A stretch of 64,000 nt of DNA from an uncultured archaeon (GCA_964388035.1 CAYLZE010000007.1:48246-112245); one strand, 5' to 3'. Positions 17,506 through 44,311 are shown, numbered from the stretch's first letter. Notes: a model not told the origin generated them from the sequence alone. Translations and numbers: made by a program.

Positions 17506-17771
17506 TGAATTTCACGCCAAATTCATTCTCATTTTTAATATTTTCTGGATGAAGGGATTCCCGCGCATTCTTGGATACCTCTCTATGAAAGGGTTTAGTT
17601 CATACCATGTATCAATTTAGCTTTCTATAATATTTTTAAATTTCACTGTAATTGAATATTTTTTATTACTCTAATTTAGATTTGGTTAGATTTTAATCTT
17701 AAAATGCTCGAAGAATCTTTGATCAATTTTTTTATAATGTAAGTCATGAAACCTTGTACATCCCTGATCGC

Positions 17772-18725: not shown

Positions 18726-18839
18726 TTTATGAACGGATATGTTTTTTCTTGCAATGGTAATAAAAGTAATTCTTTTTAAAATTCTCTAAATAGAAAAGTC
18801 GAAAAACAAAATAATATTAAAAAAAAAAAAAAGAGATGT

Positions 18840-19640
18840 TTAGTTTCTGGGATAAGAGATATCTTTCATTATAAAGATATCTTGGGAACCAAGGTTCACG
18901 GTTATACCAGAAATTTTGGCTATATCTCCTTTAAAATGTTCCTTTTCTTTCATTAGAAATTCATTTATCATTTGATTTGCTTTATTCATGACCAAATCAT
19001 AGTTTAATTTAAAGAGGTTGACAACCTGTAAGTTTTCATCTTCAATGGCTAATATGTCGCTAAGTCTTGGAGCATAATTATTGATCAATTCACCATGGAG
19101 AACCATCCTCGTTGGATCCATGTTGGAATTATCGGGAGCGATTTTAAAATCTTCGGGACTTCCCGCTTGCTTTAATGCAGCCAAGAATCCCATCATTGCC
19201 CCGCAAGAAGAAGTAAGGTTTTGTTGCCCCGGTCGAGCTAGTTTTCCATAGATATATTCTCCTTGCTGATTCTTAATAAGACCCACATGAGGACTAATAA
19301 AAAAGATCAAGTTCCCGTGCTTTTTTTCCCCATTAGATTTGTTGTCTGGAGAGTGGTGCGAAGCGGCAGTTATTCCTGAAACACCCCCCATCGGATAGGC
19401 GCCTAAGCCTCCCAAGTGAAACTCTCCGTTATAATTTGAGGTTAATGCATTTTCCACGGAATCCACTTCATCAATTCTATTCACATCGTCTGGACAAACT
19501 GAAAAGACGAGTCTAGAGTTATGCTTCTCAAGTCCATGATCCGTCAAGTTTTTCCTAACTTCAAGCATAAAATTGTTAATTGAAAGGATTTTTCCCCAAT
19601 TTCCATAAGTTTTATTTAATTCATTAATGAATTCGTTCAA
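18840..19640 (-). CDS. LCIB/LCIC-family beta-type carbonic anhydrase
   Basis: SVCPDDVN, HLGGLGAYP.GG.SG..AA.HH.P, PHVG, RPGQ...SSCGAM; Cys/His/Cys Zn ligands present. Confidence 0.82.
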   Translation of the reverse strand: MNEFINELNKTYGNWGKILSINNFMLEVRKNLTDHGLEKHNSRLVFSVCPDDVNRIDEVDSVENALTSNYNGEFHLGGLGAYPMGGVSGITAASHHSPDNKSNGEKKHGNLIFFISPHVGLIKNQQGEYIYGKLARPGQQNLTSSCGAMMGFLAALKQAGSPEDFKIAPDNSNMDPTRMVLHGELINNYAPRLSDILAIEDENLQVVNLFKLNYDLVMNKANQMINEFLMKEKEHFKGDIAKISGITVNLGSQDIFIMKDISYPRN

Positions 19641-22624: not shown

Positions 22625-22642
22625 TGTTTTATCCCTAACTGT

Positions 22643-23275
22643 TTATTTATATATTAAATCTTTAGTTTTCTTTAATCGAATAAAATTTTCCCTATCTACT
22701 TCTTCTAGAATTTCTCTTATTTTTTTTATTTCCGCTTGTAATTCAGGAATGATGATATTTTTAAGACCATTTATCCTACGATTTAATTTTTGAAAATTAT
22801 GAGCAAATTTCAACATCATGTCTTCCTTCTGTGCTAAGGAGACCATTAGCTCAAAAAGGGTTATCATCATCTTTATCAAATCATCCAAATGATGGCTTGT
22901 TTGCATGAAAGAATATGCGGGAAGTTGTTTATCTTCTTTAAGTTTTAAAGTAATTTCGGGTAAAATGTTTCCCATTTGTTTAATATAAGTAACTAAAATT
23001 TTTGGAACAAATTGAATCTTGCTCATTTTACTAATCAAATATAAATTTCTGGTGCCCATTTCCTTATAAGTTTCATATAATTTCCCCATAGCCCTAAGGT
23101 ATAGTCTCAGAAATTCCTTTCTTAAAGATAGATATTCGGGAAAATAAATCTTTATTTCACTTATGATTTGTTCTCTTTTGAATTCGAGAAAATTTTCCCC
23201 TCTTACCGTAAAACGGAGTCTTTTCTGTAATCCAAGCAGATTAGTCTTGGTAGGTCTTACTTTCTTAAAGGAAAT
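22643..23275 (-). CDS. atpD: A/V-type ATPase subunit D (probable ATT start; longer than the ORF-track call)
   Basis: Frame is open upstream of 23089 and encodes SFKKVRPTKTNLLGLQKRLRFTVRGENFLEFKRE (AtpD N-terminus); C-terminal RRINGLKNIIIP...LEEVDRENFIRLK. Confidence 0.9.
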   Translation of the reverse strand: MSFKKVRPTKTNLLGLQKRLRFTVRGENFLEFKREQIISEIKIYFPEYLSLRKEFLRLYLRAMGKLYETYKEMGTRNLYLISKMSKIQFVPKILVTYIKQMGNILPEITLKLKEDKQLPAYSFMQTSHHLDDLIKMMITLFELMVSLAQKEDMMLKFAHNFQKLNRRINGLKNIIIPELQAEIKKIREILEEVDRENFIRLKKTKDLIYK

Positions 23276-23289
23276 ACACGAACACCTCG

Positions 23290-24684
23290 TTAAAACTGTT
23301 CACGATAATATTTATCAATAAATTTTTCTTTAATTCTGAATAATTGATTCTTGGGAAGAACCGAGAGAATGTCCCAAGCAATATCTAAAGTTTTTTCAAA
23401 ACTTCGATTTTCGTTTGCACCTTGATTCAAAAATTTATTTTCAAAATCATCGGCAAACGTCAGTAAATATCTCTGCTCCTGGTTCAATCCTTCTTCTCCC
23501 ACAATAGAAATAAGATCTCTTACTTCTAAAGAACTTGAATAGGTAGCTAGTAATTGAGAACTAACATCTGCATGATCCTCTCGAGTAGTTTTCGCTCCAA
23601 TAGCATCCTTCATTAATCTAGAAATGGAGGCTAACACTTCAAAGGGAGGATAAACCCCTTTTTTATGGAGATCCCTGCTAAGCACCAATTGGCCTTCCGT
23701 TATATACCCCGTGGTGTCAGGAATGGGATGGGAAATATCGTCGTTAGGCATGGTTAATATCGGAATTTGAGTAATAGAACCTTTTTTTCCTTTAATCTTA
23801 CCTGTTCTCTCATAAAGAGAAGCGAGATCCGAATATAAATATCCAGGATATCCTTTTCTGCTAGGTATTTCCTCTTTTGCAGAGCTTAGTTCTCTTAGCG
23901 CTTCAGCATAATTCGTGATATCAATTAGTACGACTAATACATGCATGTCCTTATCAAATGCAAAATATTCTGCCGTTGTTAAAGCGACTCTAGGAACGAT
24001 TAGACGTTCCATGATAGGGTCATCAGCGAAATTAATAAACGAAATAATGTTTTGTATGTTTCCACTTTCTTTAAAGCGATCCAAAAAAAAAATTGCTTCA
24101 TCTCTAATAATCCCAATTCCACAAAAAATGATTAAAAAAGGTTCTTCAGTTAACACTTTTGCTTGAGTAATTATTTGAGCAGCTAGTTGATTATGAGAAA
24201 GCCCTTGTGCGCTAAAAATGGGCAACTTTTGGCCCCTAATTAAAGTAAAGAGCCCATCAATAGCGGATACTCCCGTTTGAATGACATCTGAAGGATATTG
24301 TCGAGCAAATGGATTTATTGGAGCTCCATTTATATCTCTTTCCTCATCTGTTAAAATGTTGTAATCTAATTCCCTCTTTGTACTGATGTCTATGGACTTT
24401 CCTAGGGAATTAAATACTCTACCAAGCATGTCCGGAGATAATTTGATATTAAAGGTATTTCGAGTGAAAGAAATTTTCGAATTTTCAGAAGAGAGTCCTT
24501 TAGTACTTTCAAACACCTCAACAACGATCGTATCCTCATCAATTTTGACGACTTCACCGTTGCGTTCGGATCCATCTTGCGTATATATTTTAATAATTTC
24601 CCCATATTGAACATCATGCTCATTTTTCAAAAAGATTAGAGGACCTATGATTTTTTCAAGTCGGCTATAAGTAACTTTACTCAT
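23290..24684 (-). CDS. atpB: A/V-type ATPase subunit B
   Basis: [70 protein letters not shown]. Confidence 0.97.
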
Positions 24685-24736
24685 TTTCCCTCATCTATTC
24701 TGATTTTTTTCATTTTTAACATTACTCATCCTTTTC

Positions 24737-26563
24737 TCATCTACTTTGAATTGATTTTAAAGAATCCATTTCTTCTATTAATTTATCTCGTAATTGTTCC
24801 ATTTGGGAAATATCATCATTTTTAACATTAGAGCTGACCCGTTGGAGATCATAAATGATCTCGAGACTCTTGATATCCTCTACTAATACTCCTTGATTGA
24901 TCAATTCCCGTGCTTCTTGATGAAATAACAATATAAGCTTAATTTGCGCTAAAAGTTTTTCCGGAGAAGTGAAACAATCGATATCATTAAATGCATTTTG
25001 TATTAAAAATCCATTCTTTATTATTTTCGCAACGAATAAATCAAGTTGTTGATCATCAGGCAAGTTCTCTTCTCCAATAAGTTGGGTAATGTTTTTTAAA
25101 TTGTTTTCTACAGACAAAATATCATTTACTCTTTTTCTGCACTGGAACCAATCTAATTCTATGTTATGCCATTCAACATCTCTCTCATACCACCAATCCG
25201 AGATGTAATCGGGATAATTGGAATAAGAATCACGCCAACTAATAGCAGGATAATGTTTGGAATATGCTAAATTAGCATCTAATGCCCAAAAGGCTTGAAC
25301 AAATCGTTTTGTGTTTGATGTGACGGGTTCATTAAAATCTCCGGAAGGAGGAGATACCGAACCAATAATGGAGAGAGAGCCAAGATTTTCTTTCTCTTCA
25401 GATTTACCTAATACATTGACAATTCCCGCTCGTTCATAGAAACTTGAAAGTTTAGAAGGAAGATAAGCAGGGTAACCCTCTTCAGCAGGCATTTCTTCCA
25501 ATAACCCGGATATCTCTCTTAAAGATTCCGCCCATCTAGAAGTACTATCAGCAAGAAGGGCAACATCATAGCCCATATCCCGATAATATTCTGCAATCGT
25601 CACTCCCGAGAAAATACTTGCTTCTCGAGCGGAAACGGGCATGTTTGATGTATTAGCGATTAAAATAATTCGATTCAATAACTTCTTTCCCGTTCTAGGA
25701 TCTTTTATTTCAGCGAATTGTTGTAAAACATCAGCGATTTCATTCCCTCTTTCTCCACATCCAACAAATACAATAACATTAGCATTACACCATTTTGCCA
25801 AGGATTGCTGGATTATCGTTTTACCCGTACCAAATCCTCCGGGAACGGCCACGGTCCCTCCTTTAGCAATAGGAAATAATAAATCGATAACCCTTTGACC
25901 AGTAATTAAGGGTTCAATTAAGTTTAATTTCTTTAAGTATGGCCTACTTTCCGTTACAGGCCATTTTTGTATCATGGTAAAAGATTTTTCTTTATTATTA
26001 GTTTTTATACGATAAATTTCATCATTAACGTGATATTTACCATCTTTCACCACATGAGTAAGTATTCCAGAAAGATAAGGGGGTACCATTATTTTATGTT
26101 GAACGGAATCTGTTTCTTGCACAATTCCAATTGTCTCCCCCCGCGTTACCTCATCATTTACACTTTTTAACGCTTTGAATTCCCATAATTTGGTTCGAGA
26201 AAGGGAGGGTAATTCTAAACCCCTTTTTAAAAACCCTTTATTCTCAGTTTCTTCTAAGGCAAATTCAAGAGGTCTTTGAATGCCATCAAAAATGTTTCCA
26301 ACGAGACCCGGACCCAATTCCATCGAGAGAGGTTCGTTTAGAGATATTACCTCTTGGTTAAGTTTCAGATTAAAAGTATCTTCATAACATTGAGCAACCA
26401 CGTGATCTGCATGGATTTGGATGACCTCTCCCACAATATTGTTCTTTACTACTTTAATCAAATCATTTAGACGTGTAATTTCTTCAATTCCTTTTATTTT
26501 AATTAAAGATCCGTTAATGGATGAGATGTATCCCTTGCCATTTTTATGATTAGATTTGATCAT
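24737..26563 (-). CDS. atpA: A/V-type ATPase catalytic subunit A
   Basis: Walker A GGFGTGKT, GCGERGNE, ANTSNMPV.AREAS, DSTSRWAE, EEMPAEEGYPAYL; no intein. Confidence 0.97.
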   Translation of the reverse strand: MIKSNHKNGKGYISSINGSLIKIKGIEEITRLNDLIKVVKNNIVGEVIQIHADHVVAQCYEDTFNLKLNQEVISLNEPLSMELGPGLVGNIFDGIQRPLEFALEETENKGFLKRGLELPSLSRTKLWEFKALKSVNDEVTRGETIGIVQETDSVQHKIMVPPYLSGILTHVVKDGKYHVNDEIYRIKTNNKEKSFTMIQKWPVTESRPYLKKLNLIEPLITGQRVIDLLFPIAKGGTVAVPGGFGTGKTIIQQSLAKWCNANVIVFVGCGERGNEIADVLQQFAEIKDPRTGKKLLNRIILIANTSNMPVSAREASIFSGVTIAEYYRDMGYDVALLADSTSRWAESLREISGLLEEMPAEEGYPAYLPSKLSSFYERAGIVNVLGKSEEKENLGSLSIIGSVSPPSGDFNEPVTSNTKRFVQAFWALDANLAYSKHYPAISWRDSYSNYPDYISDWWYERDVEWHNIELDWFQCRKRVNDILSVENNLKNITQLIGEENLPDDQQLDLFVAKIIKNGFLIQNAFNDIDCFTSPEKLLAQIKLILLFHQEARELINQGVLVEDIKSLEIIYDLQRVSSNVKNDDISQMEQLRDKLIEEMDSLKSIQSR

Positions 26564-27284
26564 ACTCTCTCAAATATTCCTCTATCTTTGATTTTTGCGT
26601 TTGAATAAATACTGCAAATTCATGCTCTATCTTTTTCATCTCTTCTTCAGAAATTAATTTCAAAAATTCTTTCTCAATTAAGGATGAATTATTATTAATG
26701 ATTTCATCAATCGAATAATCTCGAGCTATTTTTTCGGCAGGTAATATTATTCTATATCCCCCAATTAATCCTTCTTCTAACTTTCTTAATTGAACTTTTT
26801 CTCCAAATAAATCTTCGTGTTGTTTCTTGTTTTGTGTAAAATAATCATAATCTTTGGAATTAAAATGGTACTCAAGGGATGATTCCCCTTTTAAATCCTT
26901 TACACTTTCTTCCATATTCTTAATCATGAACTTGATATACTCCGAATAATTTTTTTGGATATGCTCATTAACTTTAGCTCGGATATCTTCATTTAATTCA
27001 TTGTTCAACCGATTTTTAAGGTTAAGAGAATAGTCCTTGGTTCTAATAAGATTGGAAGATAAAGAATTATTGCAAAATTCATTATAAGTATCGATAAAAG
27101 TATTTTTGATTTGTTGGGAACGCTCTTTGGTTTTTTCAAGATTTTTTTTTTTGATTTTTGCTTTCTGAAATAATACTAATTGATTCATTTCTCTAATTTC
27201 TTTATCCGCTTTTTGGACCAAGTACACTCCTAATTTTCCCACTCTATTTTTTAATTCTTTCTCTTCAGAAATGTCTCTTCCCAC
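26550..27284 (-). CDS. atpE: A/V-type ATPase subunit E
   Basis: N-terminal coiled coil, GLIGGYRI and DYSID motifs, operon position. Confidence 0.75.
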   Translation of the reverse strand: MGRDISEEKELKNRVGKLGVYLVQKADKEIREMNQLVLFQKAKIKKKNLEKTKERSQQIKNTFIDTYNEFCNNSLSSNLIRTKDYSLNLKNRLNNELNEDIRAKVNEHIQKNYSEYIKFMIKNMEESVKDLKGESSLEYHFNSKDYDYFTQNKKQHEDLFGEKVQLRKLEEGLIGGYRIILPAEKIARDYSIDEIINNNSSLIEKEFLKLISEEEMKKIEHEFAVFIQTQKSKIEEYLREYDQI

Positions 27285-27288
27285 CTTT

Positions 27289-27609
27289 TTAAATTATTAT
27301 TTTATGAATGATATCATAAATTTTGTTATAAAATATATCCGCACTGTCAATATTAGGTTCAAAAATATTAGGAACGTGAAATACAAAAGGACTTCTATTA
27401 TTTATTTTGAAATCTAATAAGAAATCAATATCATTTGGAGATAGTTCCATTGCGATGATAATCATGCCTATTGATTTTTGTTTTATTAATTCGTTAAATA
27501 CTTTAATAAAATCTTCAGGTTTTTCCACTTCTTTACCTTCTATTCCCAAGAGCCCAAATAACCTAACTAATTCAGGATCTCCCATTATAAACATTTCTTG
27601 TTCCGGCAT
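27289..27609 (-). CDS. atpF: A/V-type ATPase subunit F
   Basis: IMGDPELVRLFGLLGIEG...IGMIII...PFVFHVP; 106 aa. Confidence 0.9.
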   Translation of the reverse strand: MPEQEMFIMGDPELVRLFGLLGIEGKEVEKPEDFIKVFNELIKQKSIGMIIIAMELSPNDIDFLLDFKINNRSPFVFHVPNIFEPNIDSADIFYNKIYDIIHKIII

Positions 27610-27923
27610 TAAAATTCAAGCTTTAGTTTTTGTAAAATTGTATCTATTAATTGTTCTTTATTCTCCAAAAAAGCATTTTCGATATTTTTCAATGCACTAA
27701 TAAAACGAGCATCAAAATTTTTTATTCCGACATGTACATCTTCAGAAAGTTCCTTTAACGCAGTATTGACGGTAGCGTGTTTTTTGTCAATTACATTTTC
27801 CATGCTGGTATCTTGCTCTTTCCGATAATTTTTCAAATCAACATTATTCTCTTCCTTAGCATTTTCGATCAAATACTTGTATGTCTCCTCAATATCCTTT
27901 ATCCAATCAAATAAGTCAACCAA
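27609..27923 (-). CDS. A/V-type ATPase subunit H/G (peripheral stalk)
   Basis: 104-aa charged coiled coil (IKDIEE...LIENAKEE), translationally coupled to atpF. Confidence 0.7.
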   Translation of the reverse strand: MVDLFDWIKDIEETYKYLIENAKEENNVDLKNYRKEQDTSMENVIDKKHATVNTALKELSEDVHVGIKNFDARFISALKNIENAFLENKEQLIDTILQKLKLEF

Positions 27924-27940
27924 TTTTTTTCAATCCTCAA

Positions 27941-29002
27941 TTATATTTCTTTATTTCTTAATAATTCAAACTTTTTATCAATTAATTGCACCGCTTTGGG
28001 AAGAATATCAAATTTAATTTCTTTTTCCTTCATAATTAAAAGCTCCAATATTTTATAAATTGTAATATATTCAATATCGCCAATTTGCAGACTAACCTTT
28101 GTAAAAAAATATTCAATATAAAGTGATTCTAGCGCCCAATTTAGATGATCCTCATCAAAAGAGGATTCATGATAGAGATCTTTTATTTTTGAAGATGAAC
28201 TTAAAATATATTTGAGATTGTCAATGAAAGATTCAGTATTTTCCAATGCAATCAATGTTTTTATTATTTGTGGGGTTAAAATTAAATAATTATTAATAAT
28301 TATTTGACTCAAGAGATTTCTGTCTACATTATTCTTGATCCCTCTATAAATTGTACTTAAATTGTAGACTTCTACAGCATAATCTACAAACAAATTAATG
28401 GCGTTTCTTTCCTCTTTACTTGTACTATGCCCTATGTAAACCAAATTTCTGTAATACAATTGATCTAAGAATGCATCTAACACAAAAATCTCATGATTGT
28501 TCCTAAAATATAGCAGTCCTTCTCTTATGACTTCATAATATCTAGTTTTTCTCATGAAGTATTCAATTTCTTCTAGAGAATAGAGCTCAAGTAATTTTTC
28601 GATGAACTCCTCATTATCTAAATATTCTTCTACAGTAAAATTTACATTTTCCTTCCTTTCTTCTTTGCTTAATCCTACAATAGTTCCTATAATTATCTGT
28701 TTGATATTGTAAATTTCATATTTTAATAGAAATGTTCTAAGAAAGTGGCGCATATCATCGGGCGAATAGAGCATTATTTTTCCAATAACTTTTATAAAAA
28801 TATTATATAATTTACTTTCCACTTCCTCGACAGTGGGGGCTTCGATCTTCATATCAGGATAATATGGTTTGATAAACTCCAAAAACTCTTCAAAGTTTTC
28901 AATGCTCCTTAATTTTTTTAAAGCTGGTTCATCCATTATTATCATTTTCAGATAACCTATTTTAACATAGGTATACGCGTATGAAGGAATTTGAAATGTC
29001 AT
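27941..29002 (-). CDS. atpC: A/V-type ATPase subunit C (d)
   Basis: YAY..VKI..LK, KYEIYNIK.II, LDAFLDQLYY, EVYNL.TIYRG, KEKEIK; ~350 aa. Confidence 0.88.
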   Translation of the reverse strand: MTFQIPSYAYTYVKIGYLKMIIMDEPALKKLRSIENFEEFLEFIKPYYPDMKIEAPTVEEVESKLYNIFIKVIGKIMLYSPDDMRHFLRTFLLKYEIYNIKQIIIGTIVGLSKEERKENVNFTVEEYLDNEEFIEKLLELYSLEEIEYFMRKTRYYEVIREGLLYFRNNHEIFVLDAFLDQLYYRNLVYIGHSTSKEERNAINLFVDYAVEVYNLSTIYRGIKNNVDRNLLSQIIINNYLILTPQIIKTLIALENTESFIDNLKYILSSSSKIKDLYHESSFDEDHLNWALESLYIEYFFTKVSLQIGDIEYITIYKILELLIMKEKEIKFDILPKAVQLIDKKFELLRNKEI

Positions 29003-29123
29003 AAGATAACACCACGATTACATTTTTTAAAATAAATAATAAATAATTTTTATCTCCTTAGCAATTGGTAGAGGTATAATACATTAGAATGTTAAAAATT
29101 ATAGCATGTTTCTATTAGCTAAG

Positions 29124-29504
29124 TTAGGGTAATGAAGGAATTTTAGTCCATAGTAAGACTGCCATGATTAATCCATAAATTGCTAATGCCTCACAGAGTG
29201 CTACTACGAGAAAAGCTTTAAAAAAGACTTCTTCCTTCTCAGATAATGACGCTATTGCTGCTGTACCCGTTGTTTTTAATGCTGTACCCGCACCTAAAGT
29301 TGATAACCCTATGGCTATGCCCGCTCCTAAACCGAGCATCCCAGCAGTGTTGGCACTATAGTAATCATAATTAGAGGGTTGCTGAACTTGTGCACTAACA
29401 AAACTAATTATTCCATCAACGGAGAAAAGAACTACCATCACCAGAAGAACTTGAAATACCGCTAGTAATAAAAAAAACTTCTGTTTACCATTCATCAATT
29501 TCAC
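29124..29504 (-). CDS. atpK: A/V-type ATPase proteolipid subunit K (c), single hairpin with N-terminal leader
   Basis: LGAGIAIGLSTLGAG...ALCEALAIYGLI with the ion-carrying Glu; hydrophobic leader ending VSAQ. Confidence 0.93.
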   Translation of the reverse strand: MKLMNGKQKFFLLLAVFQVLLVMVVLFSVDGIISFVSAQVQQPSNYDYYSANTAGMLGLGAGIAIGLSTLGAGTALKTTGTAAIASLSEKEEVFFKAFLVVALCEALAIYGLIMAVLLWTKIPSLP

Positions 29505-32797: not shown

Positions 32798-33319
32798 TTA
32801 TTTAATGATTTTCTGAATTTCGACAATCCTTTTCGAAATGTGTTCTAGTGAATATTTAATATGATTTTGCATTTCAATTATTTCTGATAATATTTTATTA
32901 ATATGGGTTTTTTGAGAATTTGATAAGGATTTTTGCATTTGTGAGGATTTTATGGAATTCTGCGGATTCTCTTCTTTTTTTACGATAAAAGTTCTGGATT
33001 CTCCAGGATATTTAAGATCCACGCGTCCTTCAATAATTTCATTATAAATTGGGATAAATTCTTCTGGCTCACGACCTTGCTTGATTAATTCATATTGATA
33101 ATCATAATATTGCTTTTTACCTTTTAATTTTCCCGCCCAATTCGAAGCGATATAACGATGAAAGAGCCGGGATTTTTGCCCTGCCCATAACCATATGGTT
33201 TTAATGGTCTTATCTATAATTAGATAGACACCTTCAGGCTCAAAAAAAGTAGTGATTTCATTTGATAAAGATTCCCCGTCAATAATATAACAATATTCTG
33301 AATATTCCTTGCTTAACAT
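32798..33319 (-). CDS. Single gelsolin-domain protein with C-terminal coiled coil
   Basis: VYLIID...TIWLWAGQKS....RYIA...A.KL...LIKQGREPEEF matches the gelsolin repeat (xILD..IxxWxG..S...QG.EP.EF). Confidence 0.82.
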   Translation of the reverse strand: MLSKEYSEYCYIIDGESLSNEITTFFEPEGVYLIIDKTIKTIWLWAGQKSRLFHRYIASNWAGKLKGKKQYYDYQYELIKQGREPEEFIPIYNEIIEGRVDLKYPGESRTFIVKKEENPQNSIKSSQMQKSLSNSQKTHINKILSEIIEMQNHIKYSLEHISKRIVEIQKIIK

Positions 33320-33514: not shown

Positions 33515-35449
33515 TTATTCATAAAACTGTTCCAATGCCAATAGTAAGTCCTTGAGGGTGCTTAGATCCGGTATGAAGAGAAAAGTCCCAACCATTTTTA
33601 TGTCCGTTATCAATACATTCGTCGTAATAACCAAGGATAATTTCTTTAAGAGCCCGATTTCTTTTTGTAATATTTTAAATAATTGCTTACCTGTATCAAC
33701 GCTAATATCGGGAGGTTCGGTCATTAATCTTAAATTAAGAAGATCACCAATCGCGTTAGCATAATGGCTGGCTAAGATGTGTCCCAATTCTTTCATAGCA
33801 TCTTCATAAATTTCTGGAATATCTTTTACAGCTTCGATCTTTTTTCGCATATCTATCTTCTTTTTATCCTTATCGTCTATGATAATCGATGTGAGATCAA
33901 TGAAATCTTTAATTTTGAAGATCGATAATACCGTTGCCCTCGTTTTTCCTATGACATTACTCCAAGCGATAAAGAGTTTTTCATTTTTCTTACTAATTTC
34001 ATTAGCATATTTATCCAATTCTACCATTTCTACCGATGGTATATTGATATCCACTCTTTTATTGATCATTTTGGCTAATGCATTAGCCGCATTGCCCGCC
34101 CCCATATTTCCTACTTCTTGAAGGGCATCCCTTTGTAATTCAGTCAATTCTATTACCTCTATCTCTTTTTCCACAGTATCATTTTTAATTCCTTTAATTA
34201 ATGGTTCATAATCTATTTGAAGCTTGTCGAAAAAGTTGTAAAGCGTGTTGATATCGGGAATAAAGAAAAACACACCATTCAACCTTAAGTCCACCACCTT
34301 AATGGAAGTCTTGATAATCACTACAAAATCCGCAATGGCATTTATTTCTGAGCCTAAAAATTCTCCTAGCGATCCAACATTAGTTAAAGCAAATTCGGGC
34401 TTTTCAAGCATCATTTTCATTTTTGTTAAATCCGCTAATGCAGAAACGTAATGTCCCGCCATGATATTACCCATTTCTTCAATAGTAGAGATGGCAAAAT
34501 CATCCAAATCTTCTTTTCCATTAACTTTACTTGGGTCTACTTTTGTATCCTTGCCCGCTAAACTCGCCACCAATTTCATTAATGGTCTCACTTCAAATAC
34601 TTGAAGTATTGTCGATTCCGAAGGTCCTTTAATTTTTGAGAAAATACCGCAGATTTTTTCTTGAATTCCTCCAAATTGGTTACTAAGTTGTTCAAAGGTA
34701 ATTATTCCGACATCTGTCAAGTCGACATCAATTTTTTTCTTTATCAATCGAGAAAGAGCGGTAATTGCATTACCGGAACCGATATTCCCGATTTCTTTCA
34801 ATGTATCTTTTTGATATTCAGTTAGCTTCAAATCCACTTCAGTTGCGTTCGAACCCCGCTTAAATGCAAGAGGTTTCGGTTCAGGATGAGGAATTCTTGG
34901 GATAAAATCTTCTTCTTGTGGAATTTGCTTAAATTCTCCTTGATTGACCTCTTTTTTATTGGGGAGCGACACAGGTTTAGGTGCCATGGTTCTAAGGGAG
35001 GGGGGGACAATTGCATCTAGGTCTAATAAAATGTACGTCGTATCATCCAATACTCCTACCGATTTGATAAACCTGTAATCAATATAAGTCTCAATAATAG
35101 TACTCTTTGTCTCAAAAATCGAGAGGGGAAGCTTTTTTACGCCTATGACTTCATCTATCAATAAAGCAATTTTCAAATTACCCATTTCTAAAAGTACAAT
35201 TCTTGACTTTTCGGTTAATTCATAATCTGTTACTTTTTCATATAATTTATGCCGTAGGGAAATGATGGTATAAATTTCTCCTCGAATATCAATGAGACCT
35301 AATATACTTTTATCTGCTAAGGGAACGGGAACAATATTCTCTTTAGGAATGAAAATTTCCTTCACATTCTTTACTTGTAGCAAATAATTTTCATTCCTTA
35401 CTTTGATGATGATTGTATTCACGTTCTTGACTTCTTCTGACTCGATCAT
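33515..35449 (-). CDS. CheW-CheC-CheC fusion protein
   Basis: CheW domain (VPVP...ILGLIDIRGEI..IISLR, LLIDEVIGV), Pro-rich linker, two CheC domains (LKEIGNIGSGNA/IEEMGNI; LQEVGNMGAGNA/MKELGHI). Confidence 0.92.
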   Translation of the reverse strand: MIESEEVKNVNTIIIKVRNENYLLQVKNVKEIFIPKENIVPVPLADKSILGLIDIRGEIYTIISLRHKLYEKVTDYELTEKSRIVLLEMGNLKIALLIDEVIGVKKLPLSIFETKSTIIETYIDYRFIKSVGVLDDTTYILLDLDAIVPPSLRTMAPKPVSLPNKKEVNQGEFKQIPQEEDFIPRIPHPEPKPLAFKRGSNATEVDLKLTEYQKDTLKEIGNIGSGNAITALSRLIKKKIDVDLTDVGIITFEQLSNQFGGIQEKICGIFSKIKGPSESTILQVFEVRPLMKLVASLAGKDTKVDPSKVNGKEDLDDFAISTIEEMGNIMAGHYVSALADLTKMKMMLEKPEFALTNVGSLGEFLGSEINAIADFVVIIKTSIKVVDLRLNGVFFFIPDINTLYNFFDKLQIDYEPLIKGIKNDTVEKEIEVIELTELQRDALQEVGNMGAGNAANALAKMINKRVDINIPSVEMVELDKYANEISKKNEKLFIAWSNVIGKTRATVLSIFKIKDFIDLTSIIIDDKDKKKIDMRKKIEAVKDIPEIYEDAMKELGHILASHYANAIGDLLNLRLMTEPPDISVDTGKQLFKILQKEIGLLKKLSLVITTNVLITDIKMVGTFLFIPDLSTLKDLLLALEQFYE

Positions 35450-35488: not shown

Positions 35489-36322
35489 TCACGTTTTTAT
35501 CATAATACCTTTCCAAATTAATTCAATAACTTGTTCTTGTTCTTTTACCACTTCAGAAAAATAACCTATTTGCCGGAAGATAGCAATTTGCCCTCCATCT
35601 GACATCTTATAAATGTAATCCAATAAGTCTTGAATATCCCCGAAATTAAACCCTGCAATCTTAAATTGTTCCACATCGTTAAGCATGACGATTATTAAAT
35701 CTTCCCCATTAAAATTTTTTTCAGGATCCATGTACTCTACCCATAATTCGGGATAAATTGTTTTTTGTTTCAAGTTAAAGGCTTCATTGATAGGTATGTT
35801 TCTAAAAGTCTTATTGGTAGCAATGATGACTCGATCCGGTTCAATATTTGAGACCGTACCATAAGTGATGATATTATTAATGGTTTCCATGTAAAGAGAT
35901 AAATCTAAAGTATCGCAACACGTAATGAAAATTATTTTATCATCTTTATCTTGAACGCCAAAATCGATATCATTACTTTCTAAATCCAATTTAATAGATT
36001 CTATATTCATTTTTTTTGTATATTTTAGATATTTATATAATCGCCATTTAATGGCCTTTCTATCATTTAATTCCTTACTTATGAAGATTTTGTATAACAG
36101 TTCAAGTTGAGCATGATTTAATTTGGAAAGATTCTCATTATTTCCAAATTCGCCGGTTAGTTCATAATACCTTTCTTTAGATATTTTATCATTTTCACCT
36201 GCTAGATCATTCAGAATTACCGAAATTTCTCCTGCAGTAAAGCCGGGAGTAATTCTTTTTAATAATTCTCTCAAAAAGTCATCTGATTTATCATACAAGG
36301 TGTCATAATATTGATAATTCAT
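35489..36322 (-). CDS. Uncharacterised cytoplasmic protein within the che operon
   Basis: 277-aa ORF, short spacers to both neighbours, GGAG SD; central IDFGVQDKDDKIIFITC segment weakly resembles a restriction-endonuclease-like fold. Confidence 0.7.
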   Translation of the reverse strand: MNYQYYDTLYDKSDDFLRELLKRITPGFTAGEISVILNDLAGENDKISKERYYELTGEFGNNENLSKLNHAQLELLYKIFISKELNDRKAIKWRLYKYLKYTKKMNIESIKLDLESNDIDFGVQDKDDKIIFITCCDTLDLSLYMETINNIITYGTVSNIEPDRVIIATNKTFRNIPINEAFNLKQKTIYPELWVEYMDPEKNFNGEDLIIVMLNDVEQFKIAGFNFGDIQDLLDYIYKMSDGGQIAIFRQIGYFSEVVKEQEQVIELIWKGIMIKT

Positions 36323-36355: not shown

Positions 36356-39300
36356 TTATCCAAAAATAAAAGATTCTAATTCATCATATTCTATTTCTTT
36401 ATCATCCATTTTTTTCACATAATAACGAATTTCCTTTTCTTGATAAGGTTGAATTTTTTCTATAGTAAATAATATCGTGTCGCCTTTTTCTGCTTTAGAT
36501 TTTTCCAATTCATAATTAATATTGGAGGAAATAAACTTAAATGATTTTGAGAGGGTATCCTTAATAATTACCTCCTCTACATCTACATCCGAATTATTCC
36601 GGACTATCACGCTGATTCCGAATTCATTTAATTCTCTTCCGGGAAAAATTTCCTTACCAATCAATAAATCCCTGCGCTTATGAATTACCTTTAACTGGGG
36701 TAATAACTTTGACGGCACGCTACTTTGAATGATATAATATAATATTTCCGCTTCCTTTTCGTGCTGGTGAATATATGGGAAGTAAATGGTATAGTCCAAG
36801 GGAAAATTATATGCTTTTTTATGGTTTGGAGTAATTGCCTTTAAAGGATACTTTATCTCGAGAAAATCATCGACGTCCATTAATATAGATTGACTATCTT
36901 TTTGGAGATTCAAGGATAATTCTAGTTGATGAGATTTCGTAGGATCCTTATCATAAGGTATGATATTCACTTTGATAATATTTGAACTTATCTTACCCGA
37001 AGAATTCCTAACTTGGAATTCTGAGCTATCAAAAGAAGGAAGAAAATCCGAGGGAATCATTTCAATCAGATTCATGCTCTTAATTGCAATTGTACCGAGA
37101 TTTTTGATCATGACGACATTCTGCAGGACGTTCTCTTCAAAAGATTTTATTTCATGCTGAGAGAATTTTTTGTCTATGCGTAAATCAGCAATATCAAAAT
37201 AGCGATCATCGAATTTGAGAGAAACAATAGATCTTTTCTCGATTTGATAAGTTACTCCGTATTCTAATTTTCGGTAAAACTTCGGTTCTTTTAAACTTTC
37301 AACCATCCACCCTTCGCTTTCGTATTGGGAACCGGGATGAATTATGCTTGTTGAATCATTCGAATCAAAATGTAGATCTAAATAATTTTGTTTTCTATTT
37401 TCATCAACAACGTTTATTGATTTTAATAGAATATTAAAATCGCTATTATTTAGAAATGTGAGAAAACAGTGCCACTTATTAGGTTCTTCCTCCATTTCTT
37501 TTAAATTCATAGCATGCATCACGTGAGAATACCCTGAAAAATTCTCAATATCTAATCCAGAAATCAGTTGGCTTTTATAAAGATAAGAGATTTGAACTGT
37601 CCCTGTACTGATAATCTTTCTTTCGGAGGGATATATTTCTACAAAAATAATAATTTCTGCTTTTGCCCCGGGTTTTAACTCATTTAATGTACAAAATAAG
37701 GTCCTATTTTCAATTTCAATTCCTTGTACAGCATCACTTTTATATTTAAAATCATAAAAATCTTCAGAGAATAACTTTCCTAATTTTATATCCGTAATAA
37801 TACTATCAGATACATTTTCAAGCTTAAGGGTAAACTTGACGGAATTTTTCTGATTAAATAATAACAATAATTTATTTTTTGCCTCATAGCTCTCTAATTT
37901 TTCCACATGTTCCAAAAAGGAAGACTTTTTTGCGTCCTCCTCTTTATAAATTTCTTCTAATTTCTCTTTTAAGGTGAATTCTCTTTTATCCTCATAATCT
38001 TGAACTTCATTTTTGAGATTAATTATTTTTGATTCTAGCTCATTTTTTTCCTGAAATAATTCGCTGGATTGGTCACAAACTTTGTTATATTCTTTCTTCA
38101 TCTCGTTTAACTTGGATCTGAATTCTTCTAAAGTTGTATCATGTTTATTAATAATGGAATCAATTTTCTTGTCGAACTCTTCTTTAATAACGACATTATT
38201 TCTTAGGCTCTTTATTTCCTCATCTTCTAATTTCGAGAGTTCTCTCCCTTCTTTGTCTATTAGGTTTTCTTTAGTAGCAACCAGCTCTTCAAATATTTTT
38301 CTCTTTTGTTTAACTAGATTATCCAAATTTTTTCTTTTTTCTTCCCATTGATCAAGTTCTTTATTAAATTTTTCATAAAAAGACTCTTCGCTTTCAAGCT
38401 TTTTTTCAAGATCATCAAGACTCTCTTGAAATTTTTTTTCTACTTCAGCTGAGTCTAATCCTTCTTTTTCTGCATTTTTCAGTTCTTTTGATTTATCTTT
38501 CAATAATGATTTTTGATTTTTTGATAAGTCTTTAATTAAAGTCTTTTTATCTTTATTAGTCTGTTTTAACTTATCCGCCTTTTCTAAGGCATCTTTCAAA
38601 TCTTTTTCATTTTTATCTAATTCTAATTGAATAGCCTTAATTTGTGGATCATATTCCTTATTTAAATCTGATATTATTTTATTTTTCTTTTCTTGAAAAT
38701 TAATTTTCGTTTTCTCAATCCGGTTATTCAATTCTGACAATTCTTCTTGATTTTTGACCTTAAGTGTCTTAAGGTCCATTTCTTTTTCAATCGGATGACT
38801 TTCACTTAAATCTTTCAAGTATTTAATTTGAAGCTCTATCTTTTTTTGTACTATATTATTTATTTCATTTTCATTCTGTTCAATTAAATTGCTTAACTGT
38901 TCTTTTTGATTAGAAATATTATTAAATTGTTTCATTACATCACTATAATATTCTTCCTTAGAACTCACATCTGATTTTAACTTTCCCAGTTTTGTATCAA
39001 AATTCTTAGCGATTTCTTCATTTAGCTCGTCTTGTTTCTTGGAGGTTTGCTTTTTAATCTTTTCAATTTCTTCCTCCTTATTTTCAAAACGAAGCTTTTT
39101 TATCTCAACATTAGTAACTTCTATAGTTTCGGTTAATTTTAATGGAGGAGCAAGTTCCTTAGTATCAATTAAGCTATAATTAACATTTTTAGTACTTCGG
39201 GGTTCAAAATTACCTAAACTGATAGTATTTCCTCCTTCCAAGTTAATATTATTCATTCCAGTGAGTGTAAGTTTTGAATCCCATACTCTATCCTTTTTTG

Positions 39301-39550
39301 AACTATTTAATGCTCTTATTACTCCTGTACCAGAAAAATTGGTTAAATTTTTTTCTTTATCATAAATATATTCAATAATTTCTTCACATAATAGAGAAAA
39401 GTCTGAAAATAATTCTATACTTTCTTTCTTTATTTCGCTTTCTCCTTGCTGCAACTTTTCTATAATTTCCATCCTTCTAATTGGCATTCCAATAAATGCT
39501 GAAGCGATACTTGTTTCTAAATCCTTAATAGTCACGTGTTTAAATCCCAT
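36356..39550 (-). CDS. Large cytoplasmic protein: several Ig-like (DUF11-like) beta-sandwiches interrupted by a ~400-aa coiled coil
   Basis: Repeated xxVxNxS..I..x.I.D/E.I/LP..F strand patterns; K/E-rich heptad region at residues ~150-555; no signal peptide or TM; GGAGG SD. Confidence 0.7.
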   Translation of the reverse strand: MGFKHVTIKDLETSIASAFIGMPIRRMEIIEKLQQGESEIKKESIELFSDFSLLCEEIIEYIYDKEKNLTNFSGTGVIRALNSSKKDRVWDSKLTLTGMNNINLEGGNTISLGNFEPRSTKNVNYSLIDTKELAPPLKLTETIEVTNVEIKKLRFENKEEEIEKIKKQTSKKQDELNEEIAKNFDTKLGKLKSDVSSKEEYYSDVMKQFNNISNQKEQLSNLIEQNENEINNIVQKKIELQIKYLKDLSESHPIEKEMDLKTLKVKNQEELSELNNRIEKTKINFQEKKNKIISDLNKEYDPQIKAIQLELDKNEKDLKDALEKADKLKQTNKDKKTLIKDLSKNQKSLLKDKSKELKNAEKEGLDSAEVEKKFQESLDDLEKKLESEESFYEKFNKELDQWEEKRKNLDNLVKQKRKIFEELVATKENLIDKEGRELSKLEDEEIKSLRNNVVIKEEFDKKIDSIINKHDTTLEEFRSKLNEMKKEYNKVCDQSSELFQEKNELESKIINLKNEVQDYEDKREFTLKEKLEEIYKEEDAKKSSFLEHVEKLESYEAKNKLLLLFNQKNSVKFTLKLENVSDSIITDIKLGKLFSEDFYDFKYKSDAVQGIEIENRTLFCTLNELKPGAKAEIIIFVEIYPSERKIISTGTVQISYLYKSQLISGLDIENFSGYSHVMHAMNLKEMEEEPNKWHCFLTFLNNSDFNILLKSINVVDENRKQNYLDLHFDSNDSTSIIHPGSQYESEGWMVESLKEPKFYRKLEYGVTYQIEKRSIVSLKFDDRYFDIADLRIDKKFSQHEIKSFEENVLQNVVMIKNLGTIAIKSMNLIEMIPSDFLPSFDSSEFQVRNSSGKISSNIIKVNIIPYDKDPTKSHQLELSLNLQKDSQSILMDVDDFLEIKYPLKAITPNHKKAYNFPLDYTIYFPYIHQHEKEAEILYYIIQSSVPSKLLPQLKVIHKRRDLLIGKEIFPGRELNEFGISVIVRNNSDVDVEEVIIKDTLSKSFKFISSNINYELEKSKAEKGDTILFTIEKIQPYQEKEIRYYVKKMDDKEIEYDELESFIFG

Positions 39551-39606: not shown

Positions 39607-41757
39607 TTAAGATGCATCAATTGATTCTAGTTTCTCAAATACATGAGTAATTGAAGAAATGATGTTTGGCACATCAAGAACAATACAGATTGATCCATCA
39701 CCGGTAATCGTCACTCCCAATATTTCCTTAAAAGAAGAGTATTTTGATCTAAACGGTTTTATCACCAAATCCATTTGTTGCAGAATTTCATCTATTATGA
39801 ATATTGCTGAATCTTTTTCATCTTTATTACAATAGATTGCAATTTTTCCTTTAGATTCTGCATCGGATTTAACTCTTTCTTGTTTTTCATCATCTTTTGG
39901 AACTTCAGGACTTTCGATTGAAGGATCTGTTGTGAGAATTAAGTCCTCTATTTTTTCTTGTTCCATTTGTGTTGAAATATTTAAATATCGGTCTAATCTG
40001 ACGATGGGTACTAAATCAGAACCAAGACGGTAATATTCTTCACCTTTCACGTATTCTACCAACTCACGAGAAAAGAAATAAATTTGATTGATATTTTCAA
40101 TGGGAATCGCATAGAGATCTCCAGCCACTTTAAACATTTGAGCTTTTAAAATAGCTCTTGAAAAAGGCACGGTCAGCGAAAAGATAGTTCCTTTCCCAGG
40201 AGTAGAAGCTAAGTTAAGAGAACCTCCGAGTTCCTTGATTTTTTCGGCAACTATAGCAAGACCCATCCCTCTCCCCGAAATCAGATCTGCGCTGGATAAT
40301 GTTGAAAATCCGGGAGTGAATAACACTTTTTTAAGATCACTTTCGGAGAGTTCCGTTGCTTCTTCGGGGGTATATAATCCTAATTCTATTGCTTTAGTTC
40401 TTGTTCTTTCATAATCTATTCCCTTACCATCATCTTCTATTTGGATGATTACTGAACCGGCTCTTCTAAAGGTTTTAAGTTTAAGGTTCCCCATTCCCGA
40501 TTTTCCCAGGCTCCTTCTAATATCAGGGGTTTCAATTCCGTGATAAATAGCATTCCTTAAGAGATGAATCAAAGGACTATTTAATTGTTCAAGAATCTTC
40601 CTATCAATCTCTACATCCGTTCCTTCCAACAAGAATTTCACATTTTTATTCGTTTCTTTTGAAACATCCCGGACCAATCGTCTATATCTTCTAAATGCTG
40701 ATTCTACACGCACAAGTTTTAACTTAAAAATGATCTCTTGTATTTCTAAAAATAACTTATCCATGCTATCAAAGTAGCGATTCACCCCCCAATCTCCACG
40801 TGAAGAAAGAATTTGACTTAATTGATTTTTAATAATAATGACTTCTCCAAAATAATCCATGAGTTCTTCTAATGTTTCTATATTTACCTTAACAGACGTG
40901 ATTCTTCCCAATTCATCTTCAAAAGAACCAGTTGTGCTGGGAACTCTATCAATACCTTTTTGTTCAATGACTTGCTCTTCTCTCCGAGCATCTTTTTTCA
41001 ATTTAGAATTGGCCTCTAATAAAACATCTTTGAATTGCTTAGACGAAAGGGGTGCAATTGATTTATTTTCAATTTCTAAGATTTCATCTAACACTTGCGT
41101 TATTTTTTTCGAATCATGCTCCGTAAGATAATAGATTGCCAATTTGAGGTCAAACTGACCATTTTCTAATAAATATGGTTCTGGATCACTCCAATATATT
41201 TGACCAATCTCATTTAACGCCCTAAAAATAATAAACAATCTAACTTTTTTAAATACGCAGGTAGATTGTAATTCTATTGTTATTTTATAAAACCTATTTT
41301 TTTTATTGGTGGTCAATGAGTCTATTTGATCATTGGGAATGGTTTTAATAAAGGTAATTTCATAATCCGATTGAAATTCTTCAAATCCTTCTTTTAATTC
41401 TTTAACCATTCTATCATCTATATCTTTAATTTCTCCTGCCTTGGCCTGCTTAGTTACAAGTCTCAAAACATCTAGACTTTCGAACATCAATTCTACTATT
41501 TCCCGGGATTTATTGGCTGATACTTCTTCTTCCTTTGCTTTATCAAGTAAATTCTCAAAATTATGACAAAATTCGGAGAGATTGTCTAATCCGACCATGG
41601 CAGTCATTCCTTTTAATGTATGGAATGTAAAATATAAATTCTGGATTGCTTTTTTATTATCTGGATTTTCCTCTAAATTTAACACGTTATCTTCAATAGT
41701 CTGAACTAAATCTTCTGTCTCCGAAAGGAAGATTTTCATATCTTCATTTGACGCCAT
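39607..41757 (-). CDS. cheA: Chemotaxis histidine kinase CheA
   Basis: Hpt FHTLKGM, P2 domain, HLLRNAIYHGIE, EDDGKGID, PGFST, SGRGMGL, C-terminal CheW-like P5 domain. Confidence 0.97.
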   Translation of the reverse strand: MASNEDMKIFLSETEDLVQTIEDNVLNLEENPDNKKAIQNLYFTFHTLKGMTAMVGLDNLSEFCHNFENLLDKAKEEEVSANKSREIVELMFESLDVLRLVTKQAKAGEIKDIDDRMVKELKEGFEEFQSDYEITFIKTIPNDQIDSLTTNKKNRFYKITIELQSTCVFKKVRLFIIFRALNEIGQIYWSDPEPYLLENGQFDLKLAIYYLTEHDSKKITQVLDEILEIENKSIAPLSSKQFKDVLLEANSKLKKDARREEQVIEQKGIDRVPSTTGSFEDELGRITSVKVNIETLEELMDYFGEVIIIKNQLSQILSSRGDWGVNRYFDSMDKLFLEIQEIIFKLKLVRVESAFRRYRRLVRDVSKETNKNVKFLLEGTDVEIDRKILEQLNSPLIHLLRNAIYHGIETPDIRRSLGKSGMGNLKLKTFRRAGSVIIQIEDDGKGIDYERTRTKAIELGLYTPEEATELSESDLKKVLFTPGFSTLSSADLISGRGMGLAIVAEKIKELGGSLNLASTPGKGTIFSLTVPFSRAILKAQMFKVAGDLYAIPIENINQIYFFSRELVEYVKGEEYYRLGSDLVPIVRLDRYLNISTQMEQEKIEDLILTTDPSIESPEVPKDDEKQERVKSDAESKGKIAIYCNKDEKDSAIFIIDEILQQMDLVIKPFRSKYSSFKEILGVTITGDGSICIVLDVPNIISSITHVFEKLESIDAS

Positions 41758-41799: not shown

Positions 41800-42177
41800 T
41801 TATTTTTTTAACAATCTTTCCAAGACTTCCTCTACTTGTTCATTTTTAAAAGGTTTTTGAATAAAATCTTTAGCACCTTTTTTTGCTGCTTCTAACACTA
41901 ATGCTTCCTGACCCAATGCAGACACCACCACAATGATTGCATTTTTATCAAGCTTTAACAATTCTTCAGTAGTCTCTATTCCCCCTTTTTCAGGCATAAC
42001 TAAATCCATGGTGACCAAATCAGGCTTCAACTTTTTATATAGTGTAATGGCCTCATTCCCATTTACAGCCTCTCCCACCACTTCAGTATAAGCCGTATTA
42101 TCTATAATTTTCTTTAACATGTTGCGGGTGAAAGCAGCATCGTCCACGATAAGAACCCTTTTTTTGTTATTTGACAT
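41800..42177 (-). CDS. cheY: Chemotaxis response regulator CheY
   Basis: VLIVDDAAF.R, PDLVTMDLVMP, SALGQ, GAKDFIQKPF (Bacillus/archaeal type). Confidence 0.97.
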   Translation of the reverse strand: MSNNKKRVLIVDDAAFTRNMLKKIIDNTAYTEVVGEAVNGNEAITLYKKLKPDLVTMDLVMPEKGGIETTEELLKLDKNAIIVVVSALGQEALVLEAAKKGAKDFIQKPFKNEQVEEVLERLLKK

Positions 42178-42231: not shown

Positions 42232-42753
42232 TTAAATAATAGATTTTTGATCTTGTTGAAGAGAAATTTGTTCTGCTTCTGATAATATTTCGCGTAAATC
42301 TATGAGAATTCTCGGTCTATCCTTGAATTTAACCACGCTTTTTATGTATTTAATATCACTAAGACCCGTCTGAAAAATTGGACTCAGTCCAACCAAGTCT
42401 TTTCTGGTGATGTGAGAAACCTTAATGATCCGATCTACATAGAAGCCAATTTGCATGTCCCGTATATTCACTATAATGATAAATTTCTTTCCTGAATCGT
42501 TTTTATCGTTTAAATTTTGAGCTTTATAAATGTCATAATCATCCAAATTCAATTTCTTTTTTAAATTAATAATGTGAATGATATTACCCCTGTAATTGTA
42601 AATACCTTCTATAAAATCTAGGCTCTTGGGTAATCTTCTAATTTGCCCGGTTTGAATAATTTCTTTAACATCCAAAAGATCTATCACAAATTCCTCCCAT
42701 CCTACTTTAAAAATAATTAAGGAAATCTGTTCTTCAAGCTGTTGTTCTCCCAT
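42232..42753 (-). CDS. cheW: Chemotaxis coupling protein CheW
   Basis: IIFKVG.EEF.ID...VKEII, LPKS.DFIEGI.N.RGNII.IINL, GFYVDRI. Confidence 0.95.
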   Translation of the reverse strand: MGEQQLEEQISLIIFKVGWEEFVIDLLDVKEIIQTGQIRRLPKSLDFIEGIYNYRGNIIHIINLKKKLNLDDYDIYKAQNLNDKNDSGKKFIIIVNIRDMQIGFYVDRIIKVSHITRKDLVGLSPIFQTGLSDIKYIKSVVKFKDRPRILIDLREILSEAEQISLQQDQKSII

Positions 42754-42993: not shown

Positions 42994-43989
42994 TCATTTT
43001 GTTACCTTTGCTTCAGCACTTGCTTTCTGTTCAACAGCATGAATATCCAATGTTTTCTTCAACTCATCTGCTAAAGTACCGAGTCTATTAGCGGTAGCTG
43101 CGATGTCATCCATAGATGCTTTTTGTTGATCTGTTGCCTTCATAACTGCCTCGATGTTTTCTTCATTTTCTTCTTCATGATGTTCGACATCTTCAATCTC
43201 CTGAGTAACTGCATCAATGGCAGTGGTAGTTCCTTCGATTAAACTTTCAATAAGGTCTATATTTTTTGATGATTTAGAAACCGATCCTTTTGATTCTTCC
43301 GCGAGCTTTCTTACTTCATCGGCTACTACTGCAAATCCACGACCATGCTCCCCCGCCCTTCCCGCTTCAATGCTTGCATTAAGGGCTAACAGATCCGTTT
43401 GTTCAGATATTTTTGTAATGATTTCCATGACTTGATCAATATCTTTAGTATGGGTGATTATTTCATGAGCATTTTTATCGATGGTTTCTGAGTGACTCTC
43501 TATTTCTTTTAAGGCCTTTACTTGTGCCACGGTTGCATTATCTAATTTATGCATCCTTTCGGTGATTTCACCTGCTGTTGCGTCAACCTGTGTAGCACTT
43601 GCAGATAATTCTGCTGCGATGCTGGACACATTAATAGCGACTTCTTCGGCATGATCAACGATAGATTCCATGGAAAATTCTTTTTGTGCAAGTTCTTCCA
43701 TTGTTTGAATTAATCTATATTCAATCATAACAACTAATCCTGTAGATAAGATTAGAACTGCTGATGCTAAACTCATCAGATCAGAAATTACATCTGCCAT
43801 TCCTGCTTCAGTAAAAATTGCTATTCCATTCCATCCAAATCCAATGGTGAGATTCAAGAATAAAATCATAATTAAAAGCCGACTCAAGCTACTAGTATTG
43901 CGTCGATATGCATCGATCATTAACATAGCACTAATGCCAAAAAAGACAGCTCCCATAATAAACATTAGACCTGAAAATACATCTACCAT
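42994..43989 (-). CDS. Methyl-accepting chemotaxis protein with a 3-TM N-terminus
   Basis: [40 protein letters not shown] hairpin tip; three N-terminal TM helices. Confidence 0.95.
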
Positions 43990-43990
43990 G

Positions 43991-44311
43991 TTATTTACCT
44001 CCTCTTACGGATGATTCTTGAGTTGTCGTTTCGGTTTTCTTTAAAGCCACACGCCTATAATATACGACCCCGACCAGGGAAAATATTCCCGCGAGAAAGA
44101 AACATAATGCTTCTACTGTGGGATTGCCAAGATACATGAATAAAACTGAACCAGCCATCGAAAGGAATGTGAGAAGAAATATGCGCAATTCAGGTTTTCT
44201 ATAAGCATTGATTATAAATATAATGATCCCTAAGATGTAATAGATTAAAACCATTGGATCTATAAATGCCATTATTGCTGATTCTTCAGCTGTTGCTGTT
44301 TGTAATATCAT
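43991..44311 (-). CDS. Small 3-TM membrane protein, translationally coupled to the MCP
   Basis: Three hydrophobic helices; GGAGGTAAA-TAA-C-ATG junction to the MCP; GAGGTG SD. Confidence 0.8.

Follow-up and report, generated by a model that had tools for sequence, protein, structure and literature searches.

A mu-homology domain (MHD) protein was found in the chemosensory operon of a Lokiarchaeia genome (97% complete). It is encoded by an ORF of 1064 aa at positions 36356-39550 on the minus strand of the window, the whole stretch of 64,000 nucleotides that was analysed. The results showed that a paralogue of a widespread Asgard family of MHD-plus-Ig proteins was recruited once into this operon. 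We believe, with a probability of about 0.5, that the MHD protein and the product of the neighbouring 277-aa gene act as a cytoplasmic adaptor at the output of a Che system without a motor. Many Lokiarchaeia have full Che sets although no motor can be detected in them, and the crawling of Asgard cells is driven by actin (PMC13716822).

The MHD gene starts 56 nt past the cheA stop, with GGAGG upstream. The 277-aa partner gene (35489-36322, minus strand) follows after a gap of 33 nt, with AGGAG upstream of its start. A promoter scan gave results at chance level. A reading made earlier without database searches (the sequence-only reading) had described an ORF of 1064 aa directly after cheA, with about five beta-sandwich modules and no signal peptide or TM segment. 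The ORF was confirmed, and the seven motifs quoted for it were all found in place (7/7). The AlphaFold model (mean pLDDT 79.7) shows five beta-sandwich units. The best 19-residue hydropathy was 1.02, and when a TM segment or signal peptide was sought in 203 relatives, 5 exceeded 1.6, none of them near the N-terminus. The absence of export signals supports a cytoplasmic location, as had been proposed. Used as a single query, the protein matched nothing among PDB sequences, and its named homologues were from Promethearchaeota/Lokiarchaeia.

The ORF, the AlphaFold model and the structural matches together identify the MHD. Residues 45-146, 561-675 and 767-782 form one complete domain, as in AP mu subunits and delta-COP. 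The protein's own model matched mu4 with Z 17.4 and rmsd 2.6 Å (214 of 245 aligned), and this match spans residues 49-782, which indicates that the MHD closes around both insertions. Subdomain A is closed by late strands around an inserted subdomain B, and mu2 167-435 corresponds to residues 45-782 of the model. On the minus strand, the first half of subdomain A and the first strand of subdomain B (residues 45-146) are encoded at 39113-39418, as placed by model, profile and structure alignment. Subdomain B, together with the strand that leads back into subdomain A (residues 561-675), lies at 37526-37870, where both the structure and the profile match to mu3 and mu2 were found. An extra Ig-like domain, seen in the model and absent from eukaryotic mu chains, lies before the last strand (residues 676-766; 37253-37525). 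The last MHD strand (residues 767-782; 37205-37252) equals the end of mu2, the aligned ranges ending at 782 and 435, respectively.

For the core fold, a short orthologue was modelled over residues 48-400, using 58 rows from the family (pLDDT 92.9). The first 48 rows of a Foldseek search with this core were AP mu chains or MHD-containing coats. In a VIA search the best ten matches were all MHDs (mu4, mu2, mu3, mu1, delta-COP, SGIP1 and Syp1); mu4 gave Z 16.6 and rmsd 2.6 Å with 213 aligned, and the best non-MHD match reached 11.5. The family profile gave E 0.0018 for mu3 and E 0.008 for mu2, which are weak values. PF00928 was matched by 28 of the 58 family members at E up to 1 (best 3.8e-11), and the 1064-aa protein alone gave no match to it. 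The first module had earlier been likened to mu-adaptin and delta-COP. The fold was correctly recognised, but it is not confined to that module: modules 1 and 2 and a late strand make up one MHD.

The discontinuous two-subdomain topology is the same as in the mu chains of AP-1 to AP-4, delta-COP and SGIP1/FCHo/Syp1 (Z 13-17, rmsd 2.6-3.2 Å, 212-230 residues), whereas identity to eukaryotic MHD proteins is only 8-15% and the profile similarity is weak but real. Compared with these proteins, the archaeal protein has an Ig domain before the last strand, two further Ig domains and a 414-aa hairpin in subdomain B. It has no fused N-terminal longin domain, with only about 45 residues ahead of the MHD. 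It also has no N-terminal F-BAR domain, a trait of the muniscins FCHo and Syp1; its helices form a hairpin of two arms that lies within the MHD. The tyrosine-motif pocket of mu2 (D176, W421, R423) is absent. The aspartate D176 aligns to L54 (HMMER register, structural range), so the canonical pocket is not kept, and Asp is not among the common residues at the equivalent position in the che clade. W421 and R423 would correspond to Y768 and I770 only if the last strand aligns gap-free.

Two Ig domains follow the MHD. D4 (residues 787-957; 36680-37192, minus strand) is pilin/CnaB-like (5xcb, Z 12.8, rmsd 3.0 Å, 142 aligned). D5 (residues 958-1050; 36401-36679, minus strand) is DUF11-like (PF01345, E 4.2e-8) and is followed by a short C-terminal helix. 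Like DUF11/CLIPPER adhesins, D5 passes the Pfam cut-off; unlike them, the protein is predicted to be cytoplasmic, has no export signal or anchor, and carries the domain attached to an MHD. With the whole chain, Foldseek matched nothing but integrins and adhesins, at rmsd values over 25 Å, and this likeness was rejected as an artefact of a multi-domain chain.

In the chain, the first strand of subdomain B is followed by a coiled-coil insert of 414 aa (residues 147-560; 37871-39112, minus strand) with 37% E+K, which separates residue 146 from residue 561. The model places helices at residues 159-248, 260-363 and 367-546. They form a hairpin in which one arm (159-363) runs out, the chain turns near G364 (window about 38453-38461), and the other arm (367-546) runs back. 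The heptad periodicity was 3.62 and 3.56 in the two arms, equalled by 0 of 300 shuffles, and the arms are about 30 and 27 nm long. The out-and-back stalk that the sequence-only reading had suggested at about 37880-39100 is an antiparallel hairpin in the AlphaFold model, with heptads in both arms. No Pfam match was obtained for residues 150-560.

An insert was present at the same site in 25 homologues, so it is not an assembly artefact. Its length ranged between 14 and 972 aa; 26 proteins have an insert of 317-972 aa, and in most of the remaining ones it measures 14-39 aa. Homologues without the insert, which had been suggested as a check, were found, and most orthologues have no arm. The coiled-coil arm is optional and would not be needed for core function. 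The long arm had been treated as central to the protein. This view is not supported, since the long form occurs in only about 9 of the 46 genomes with an orthologue and close relatives lost it, with stubs left. Two proteins with stubs of 57 and 77 aa (P0017 and P0079) are nested among long forms in the tree, which shows loss of the insert by internal deletion. The careful tree needed five insert changes, of which at least three were forced, and two nested losses were clear. A quick tree suggested that the insert is ancestral to the whole type-A clade; this was not retained, as the careful tree does not fix the state at the root of that clade.

The insert model aligned to the hairpins of the chemoreceptor 2ch7 and of SMC arms with poor rmsd (2ch7: 309 of 309 residues, 11.6 Å). 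Derivation from an MCP was rejected: Pfam gave no MCPsignal match, and on an MCP profile the inserts scored below zero, like decoys. A conserved basic membrane-binding tip was also rejected; some lysines are conserved, and the net charge along the insert is inconsistent. In some standalone paralogues the insert site is a length-variable acidic loop, which indicates that this site of subdomain B tolerates insertions in general. Short and long-arm copies of the MHD protein were also observed fused in tandem (P0002, P0003, P0080; L066:4226-9160 and 16308-19160). In L066, the MHD copy behind cheA seems to be divided between two ORFs, of 936 and 814 aa.

An MHD orthologue was found in 46 of the 46 genomes with this cheA type and in no other of the 161 class genomes. 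The gene order cheA, MHD gene, 277-aa gene, CheW-CheC-CheC was constant wherever contigs allow (30 short-flank loci and 18 wider loci). Since the operon moves as a unit and the genomes are related, the figure of 46/46 shows tight linkage and not 46 independent events. In the 47th genome (G064, L053:9702-11151), a deletion from mid-cheA to mid-cheB fuses the fragments, and the MHD gene and its neighbours are gone. The 277-aa partner was found in 47 of 400 phylum genomes, all 47 being cheA-positive Lokiarchaeia.

The wider MHD-plus-Ig family was matched in 155 of the 161 class genomes, mostly without che genes, and three paralogues in the host genome are unlinked to che. The sequence-only reading had expected homologues to be linked to che genes. 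This holds strictly for the orthologue clade, but unlinked paralogues exist outside it. Members also occur in Jord-, Njord- and Thorarchaeia and, according to the Atlas taxa, in Thermoplasmatota, so the family may not be Asgard-only. One family member (P0143, L069:4043-8833) is proline-rich, has a zinc-ribbon tail and lies between a GPN-loop GTPase-like gene and EMC3/TMCO1. Homology with the Asgard Adap_comp_sub family is full-length, across MHD, Ig insert, D4 and D5. Eme 2023 (PMC10307638, Supplementary Table 3) already lists the wider family as Asgard PF00928 candidates; P0138 starts with the same sequence as its row Hel_GB_B, and the listed rows share family motifs. The che-clade motifs were not found among the table rows available, and the rows compared were standalone paralogues. 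The candidates belong to the same family, and that source gives neither a structure nor a domain layout for them and mentions no link to chemotaxis and no coiled coil. The domain family (PMC10307638) and the Asgard chemotaxis genes (PMC9834061) have each been published. In the literature searched, no account was found of the MHD-chemotaxis link, the domain layout or the two-site coiled coil.

A sister clade of 950-1050 aa is encoded in a second type of che operon (type B), in the order cheA, cheD, MHD gene, 277-aa homologue, CheW-CheC-CheC. The type-B and type-A CheA proteins are about 30% identical, and the block of MHD gene, 277-aa gene and CheW-CheC-CheC is kept in both. In the tree, the two che-linked MHD clades group at 99/95 against standalone paralogues. 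The sister clade has no long insert in subdomain B and instead carries a coiled coil of 314-401 aa inside D4. Homology of the two coiled coils was not supported, as their scores could not be separated from those of reversed coiled coils and decoys, and two separate gains are therefore the simplest reading. The N-terminal peptide (residues 1-25, MGFK...LG.P; 39476-39550, minus strand), a candidate docking motif, occurs only in the two che-linked clades. It was present in 91 proteins; of the 85 full-length members that lack it, 81 were short or standalone forms. By eye it resembles the CheY-binding peptide of FliM; it may be a common helix cap, and the likeness is not claimed. In type-B loci a longin-like gene (Sybindin-like) is added, and gelsolin and GTPase are absent, as they also are from some type-A loci.

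In the window, the transcription order is MCP (42994-43989), cheW (42232-42753), cheY (41800-42177), cheA (39607-41757), MHD gene, 277-aa gene, CheW-CheC-CheC fusion (33515-35449) and a one-domain gelsolin-like gene (32798-33319; weak match, E 0.014), all on the minus strand. The 277-aa gene is directly downstream of the MHD gene wherever the contig extends. Its product gave no usable match in Pfam, PDB or Atlas; by eye, an IDF-x-x-E/Q core like a PD-(D/E)xK fold minus E-x-K was noticed in it. Across type-A loci, the gelsolin-like gene is present in 16 of 18 and a longin-like gene in 15 of 18. The longin matches are weak, and the longins matched are of the Fuz/Mon1 type and not Clat_adaptor_s. 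The longin-like gene usually stands ahead of cheW; here it has moved to contig C50 (G000, L076:7805-8953), beside a small roadblock-like gene. In 10 loci, a Roadblock-Ras GTPase fusion (here 17772-18725, minus strand) lies within the che cluster or next to it. In the window, it and cheB (15922-17505, minus strand) form a segment (15922-18725) separated from the core che cluster by an A/V-ATPase operon and an LCIB-type carbonic anhydrase (20390-29504). ATPase operons were also seen beside type-B che loci (L068, P0121 locus).

The MCP was the only one found in the genome. It is short (331 aa) with a hydrophobic N-terminus, and a gene for a 106-aa membrane protein precedes it (window 42994-44311). 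Long-arm genomes mostly have one MCP and short-form genomes 1-20, a trend confounded by kinship. In G066 (L046:5627-11103) the cluster is reduced to cheY, cheA, the MHD gene and its 277-aa partner, and the fusion that contains CheW is found elsewhere in the genome.

Neither CheF nor archaellin was detectable in the host genome, and the MHD protein showed no similarity to CheF (PF04283). With the cut-off applied, the 161 class genomes, mostly incomplete MAGs, contained one CheF fragment, which is part of an LRR protein encoded at the end of a contig, and one archaellin-positive genome (G016). The latter has three archaellin-like genes and an ArlF/G/H/I/J-type operon (L071:8219-10360, L072:7404-12980). 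Its three che loci contain neither the MHD gene nor the 277-aa partner, and the archaellum contrast rests on this one genome. The MHD protein and the 277-aa partner are the only non-canonical genes common to both motor-less che types, which makes them concrete targets for pull-downs.

Like the CheF-archaellum output of Halobacterium and Methanococcus, the MHD gene is a non-bacterial gene embedded among archaeal che genes, and its proposed role is to connect CheY with an effector. Unlike that output, it has no PF04283 similarity, it occurs in genomes without detectable CheF and archaellin, and its coupling to CheY is a proposal. In Myxococcus, the Che-like Frz system feeds a small GTPase (MglA) with a roadblock partner (MglB) and so steers surface motility. 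The Roadblock-Ras fusion of type-A che loci resembles this arrangement by analogy only, and to our knowledge no MHD protein takes part in the Myxococcus pathway.

In this study, we believed that the MHD protein may bind Che proteins on the output side and that the output may be actin or membrane remodelling. The N-terminal peptide or the 277-aa partner would read the state of CheA/CheY. Short peptide motifs, either of membrane proteins or of the longin/Roadblock-GTPase/gelsolin module, would be recognised by the surfaces of the MHD and the Ig domains, and this binding would bias actin- and membrane-based protrusions. The coiled coil would serve as an antiparallel arm of about 27-30 nm, setting spacing or oligomerising the adaptor. 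Gene context suggests a physical link of the MHD protein to the array, the membrane or the cytoskeleton. Of the sequence-only reading, the MHD fold, the hairpin and the che linkage are supported, but the long arm was dropped as the protein's defining feature. A more specific version can be held only tentatively: the MHD protein and the 277-aa partner would carry the CheY signal to the longin/Roadblock-GTPase/gelsolin module, which would steer actin crawling, and the arm would have been gained twice independently. A complex prediction of the short orthologue (residues 1-565) with the 277-aa partner, CheY being the scored chain, gave 0.00 with no answer returned and speaks neither for nor against. 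The Asgard relatives of the mu-adaptin domain gain confirmation at the structure level, from predicted models, and a first functional context, which bears on the origin of coat adaptors. If the more specific version is true, the fold later used by eukaryotic coat adaptors was already a signalling adaptor in archaea.

The MHD protein may instead act upstream of signalling, as an array builder or receptor sorter. The MHD would bind receptor tails or CheA/CheW and cluster, position or recycle the array, with the arm spanning the distance from membrane to baseplate and a cargo adaptor or ParP-type factor as analogue. MHDs bind cargo peptides in mu2, delta-COP and SGIP1, which would suit this role. 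The gene also lies behind cheA and ahead of the CheW-CheC-CheC fusion, the arm is in the size range of a receptor's cytoplasmic hairpin (the 2ch7 alignment above), and long forms are mostly in genomes with one MCP. However, kinship confounds this last trend, and a range of 14 to 972 aa is too loose for a ruler. Putative arrays were also imaged in L. ossiferum (PMC9834061), as which we take G016, and that genome lacks the gene. We regard an array-building role as possible but rather doubtful.

It is unlikely that the Che system acts not on movement but on the budding of membranes, the release of vesicles or contact between cells, with the MHD protein and the neighbouring longin as a split mu-like coat adaptor. 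Eukaryotic mu chains consist of a longin plus an MHD. According to Eme 2023 (PMC10307638), the two occur only unfused in Asgard archaea, and longin-like genes are found in type-B as well as most type-A loci. But the longins are not of the Clat_adaptor_s type, that of the host genome is on another contig, and the loci examined contain no large adaptin subunit. Still less probable is that an ordinary family member landed in the operon with no role in chemosensing. The family is near-universal in the class, and one genome (G016) has a full Che set without the gene; against this, the gene is kept beside cheA across two che types with strongly diverged CheA, its clade gained a specific N-terminal peptide and a dedicated partner gene, and it never occurs in a genome without that cheA. 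A secreted adhesin or S-layer-like protein with DUF11/pilin Ig repeats on a stalk would agree with the DUF11 match and the adhesin and pilin likeness of D4 and the whole chain, but is highly improbable given the lack of export signals across the family, the cytosolic MHD as best fold match and the rmsd of the adhesin matches.

Further che-related genes were observed elsewhere in the host genome. Contig C24 (G000, L077:6023-8047) encodes a CheR-CheD fusion of 674 aa with a longin-like gene ahead of it, as judged by eye. A second, orphan CheA-like gene of 571 aa, with no che neighbours, lies on contig C44 (G000, L061:5666-7381), and comparable orphan CheA-like genes are present in G042, G153 and G029.
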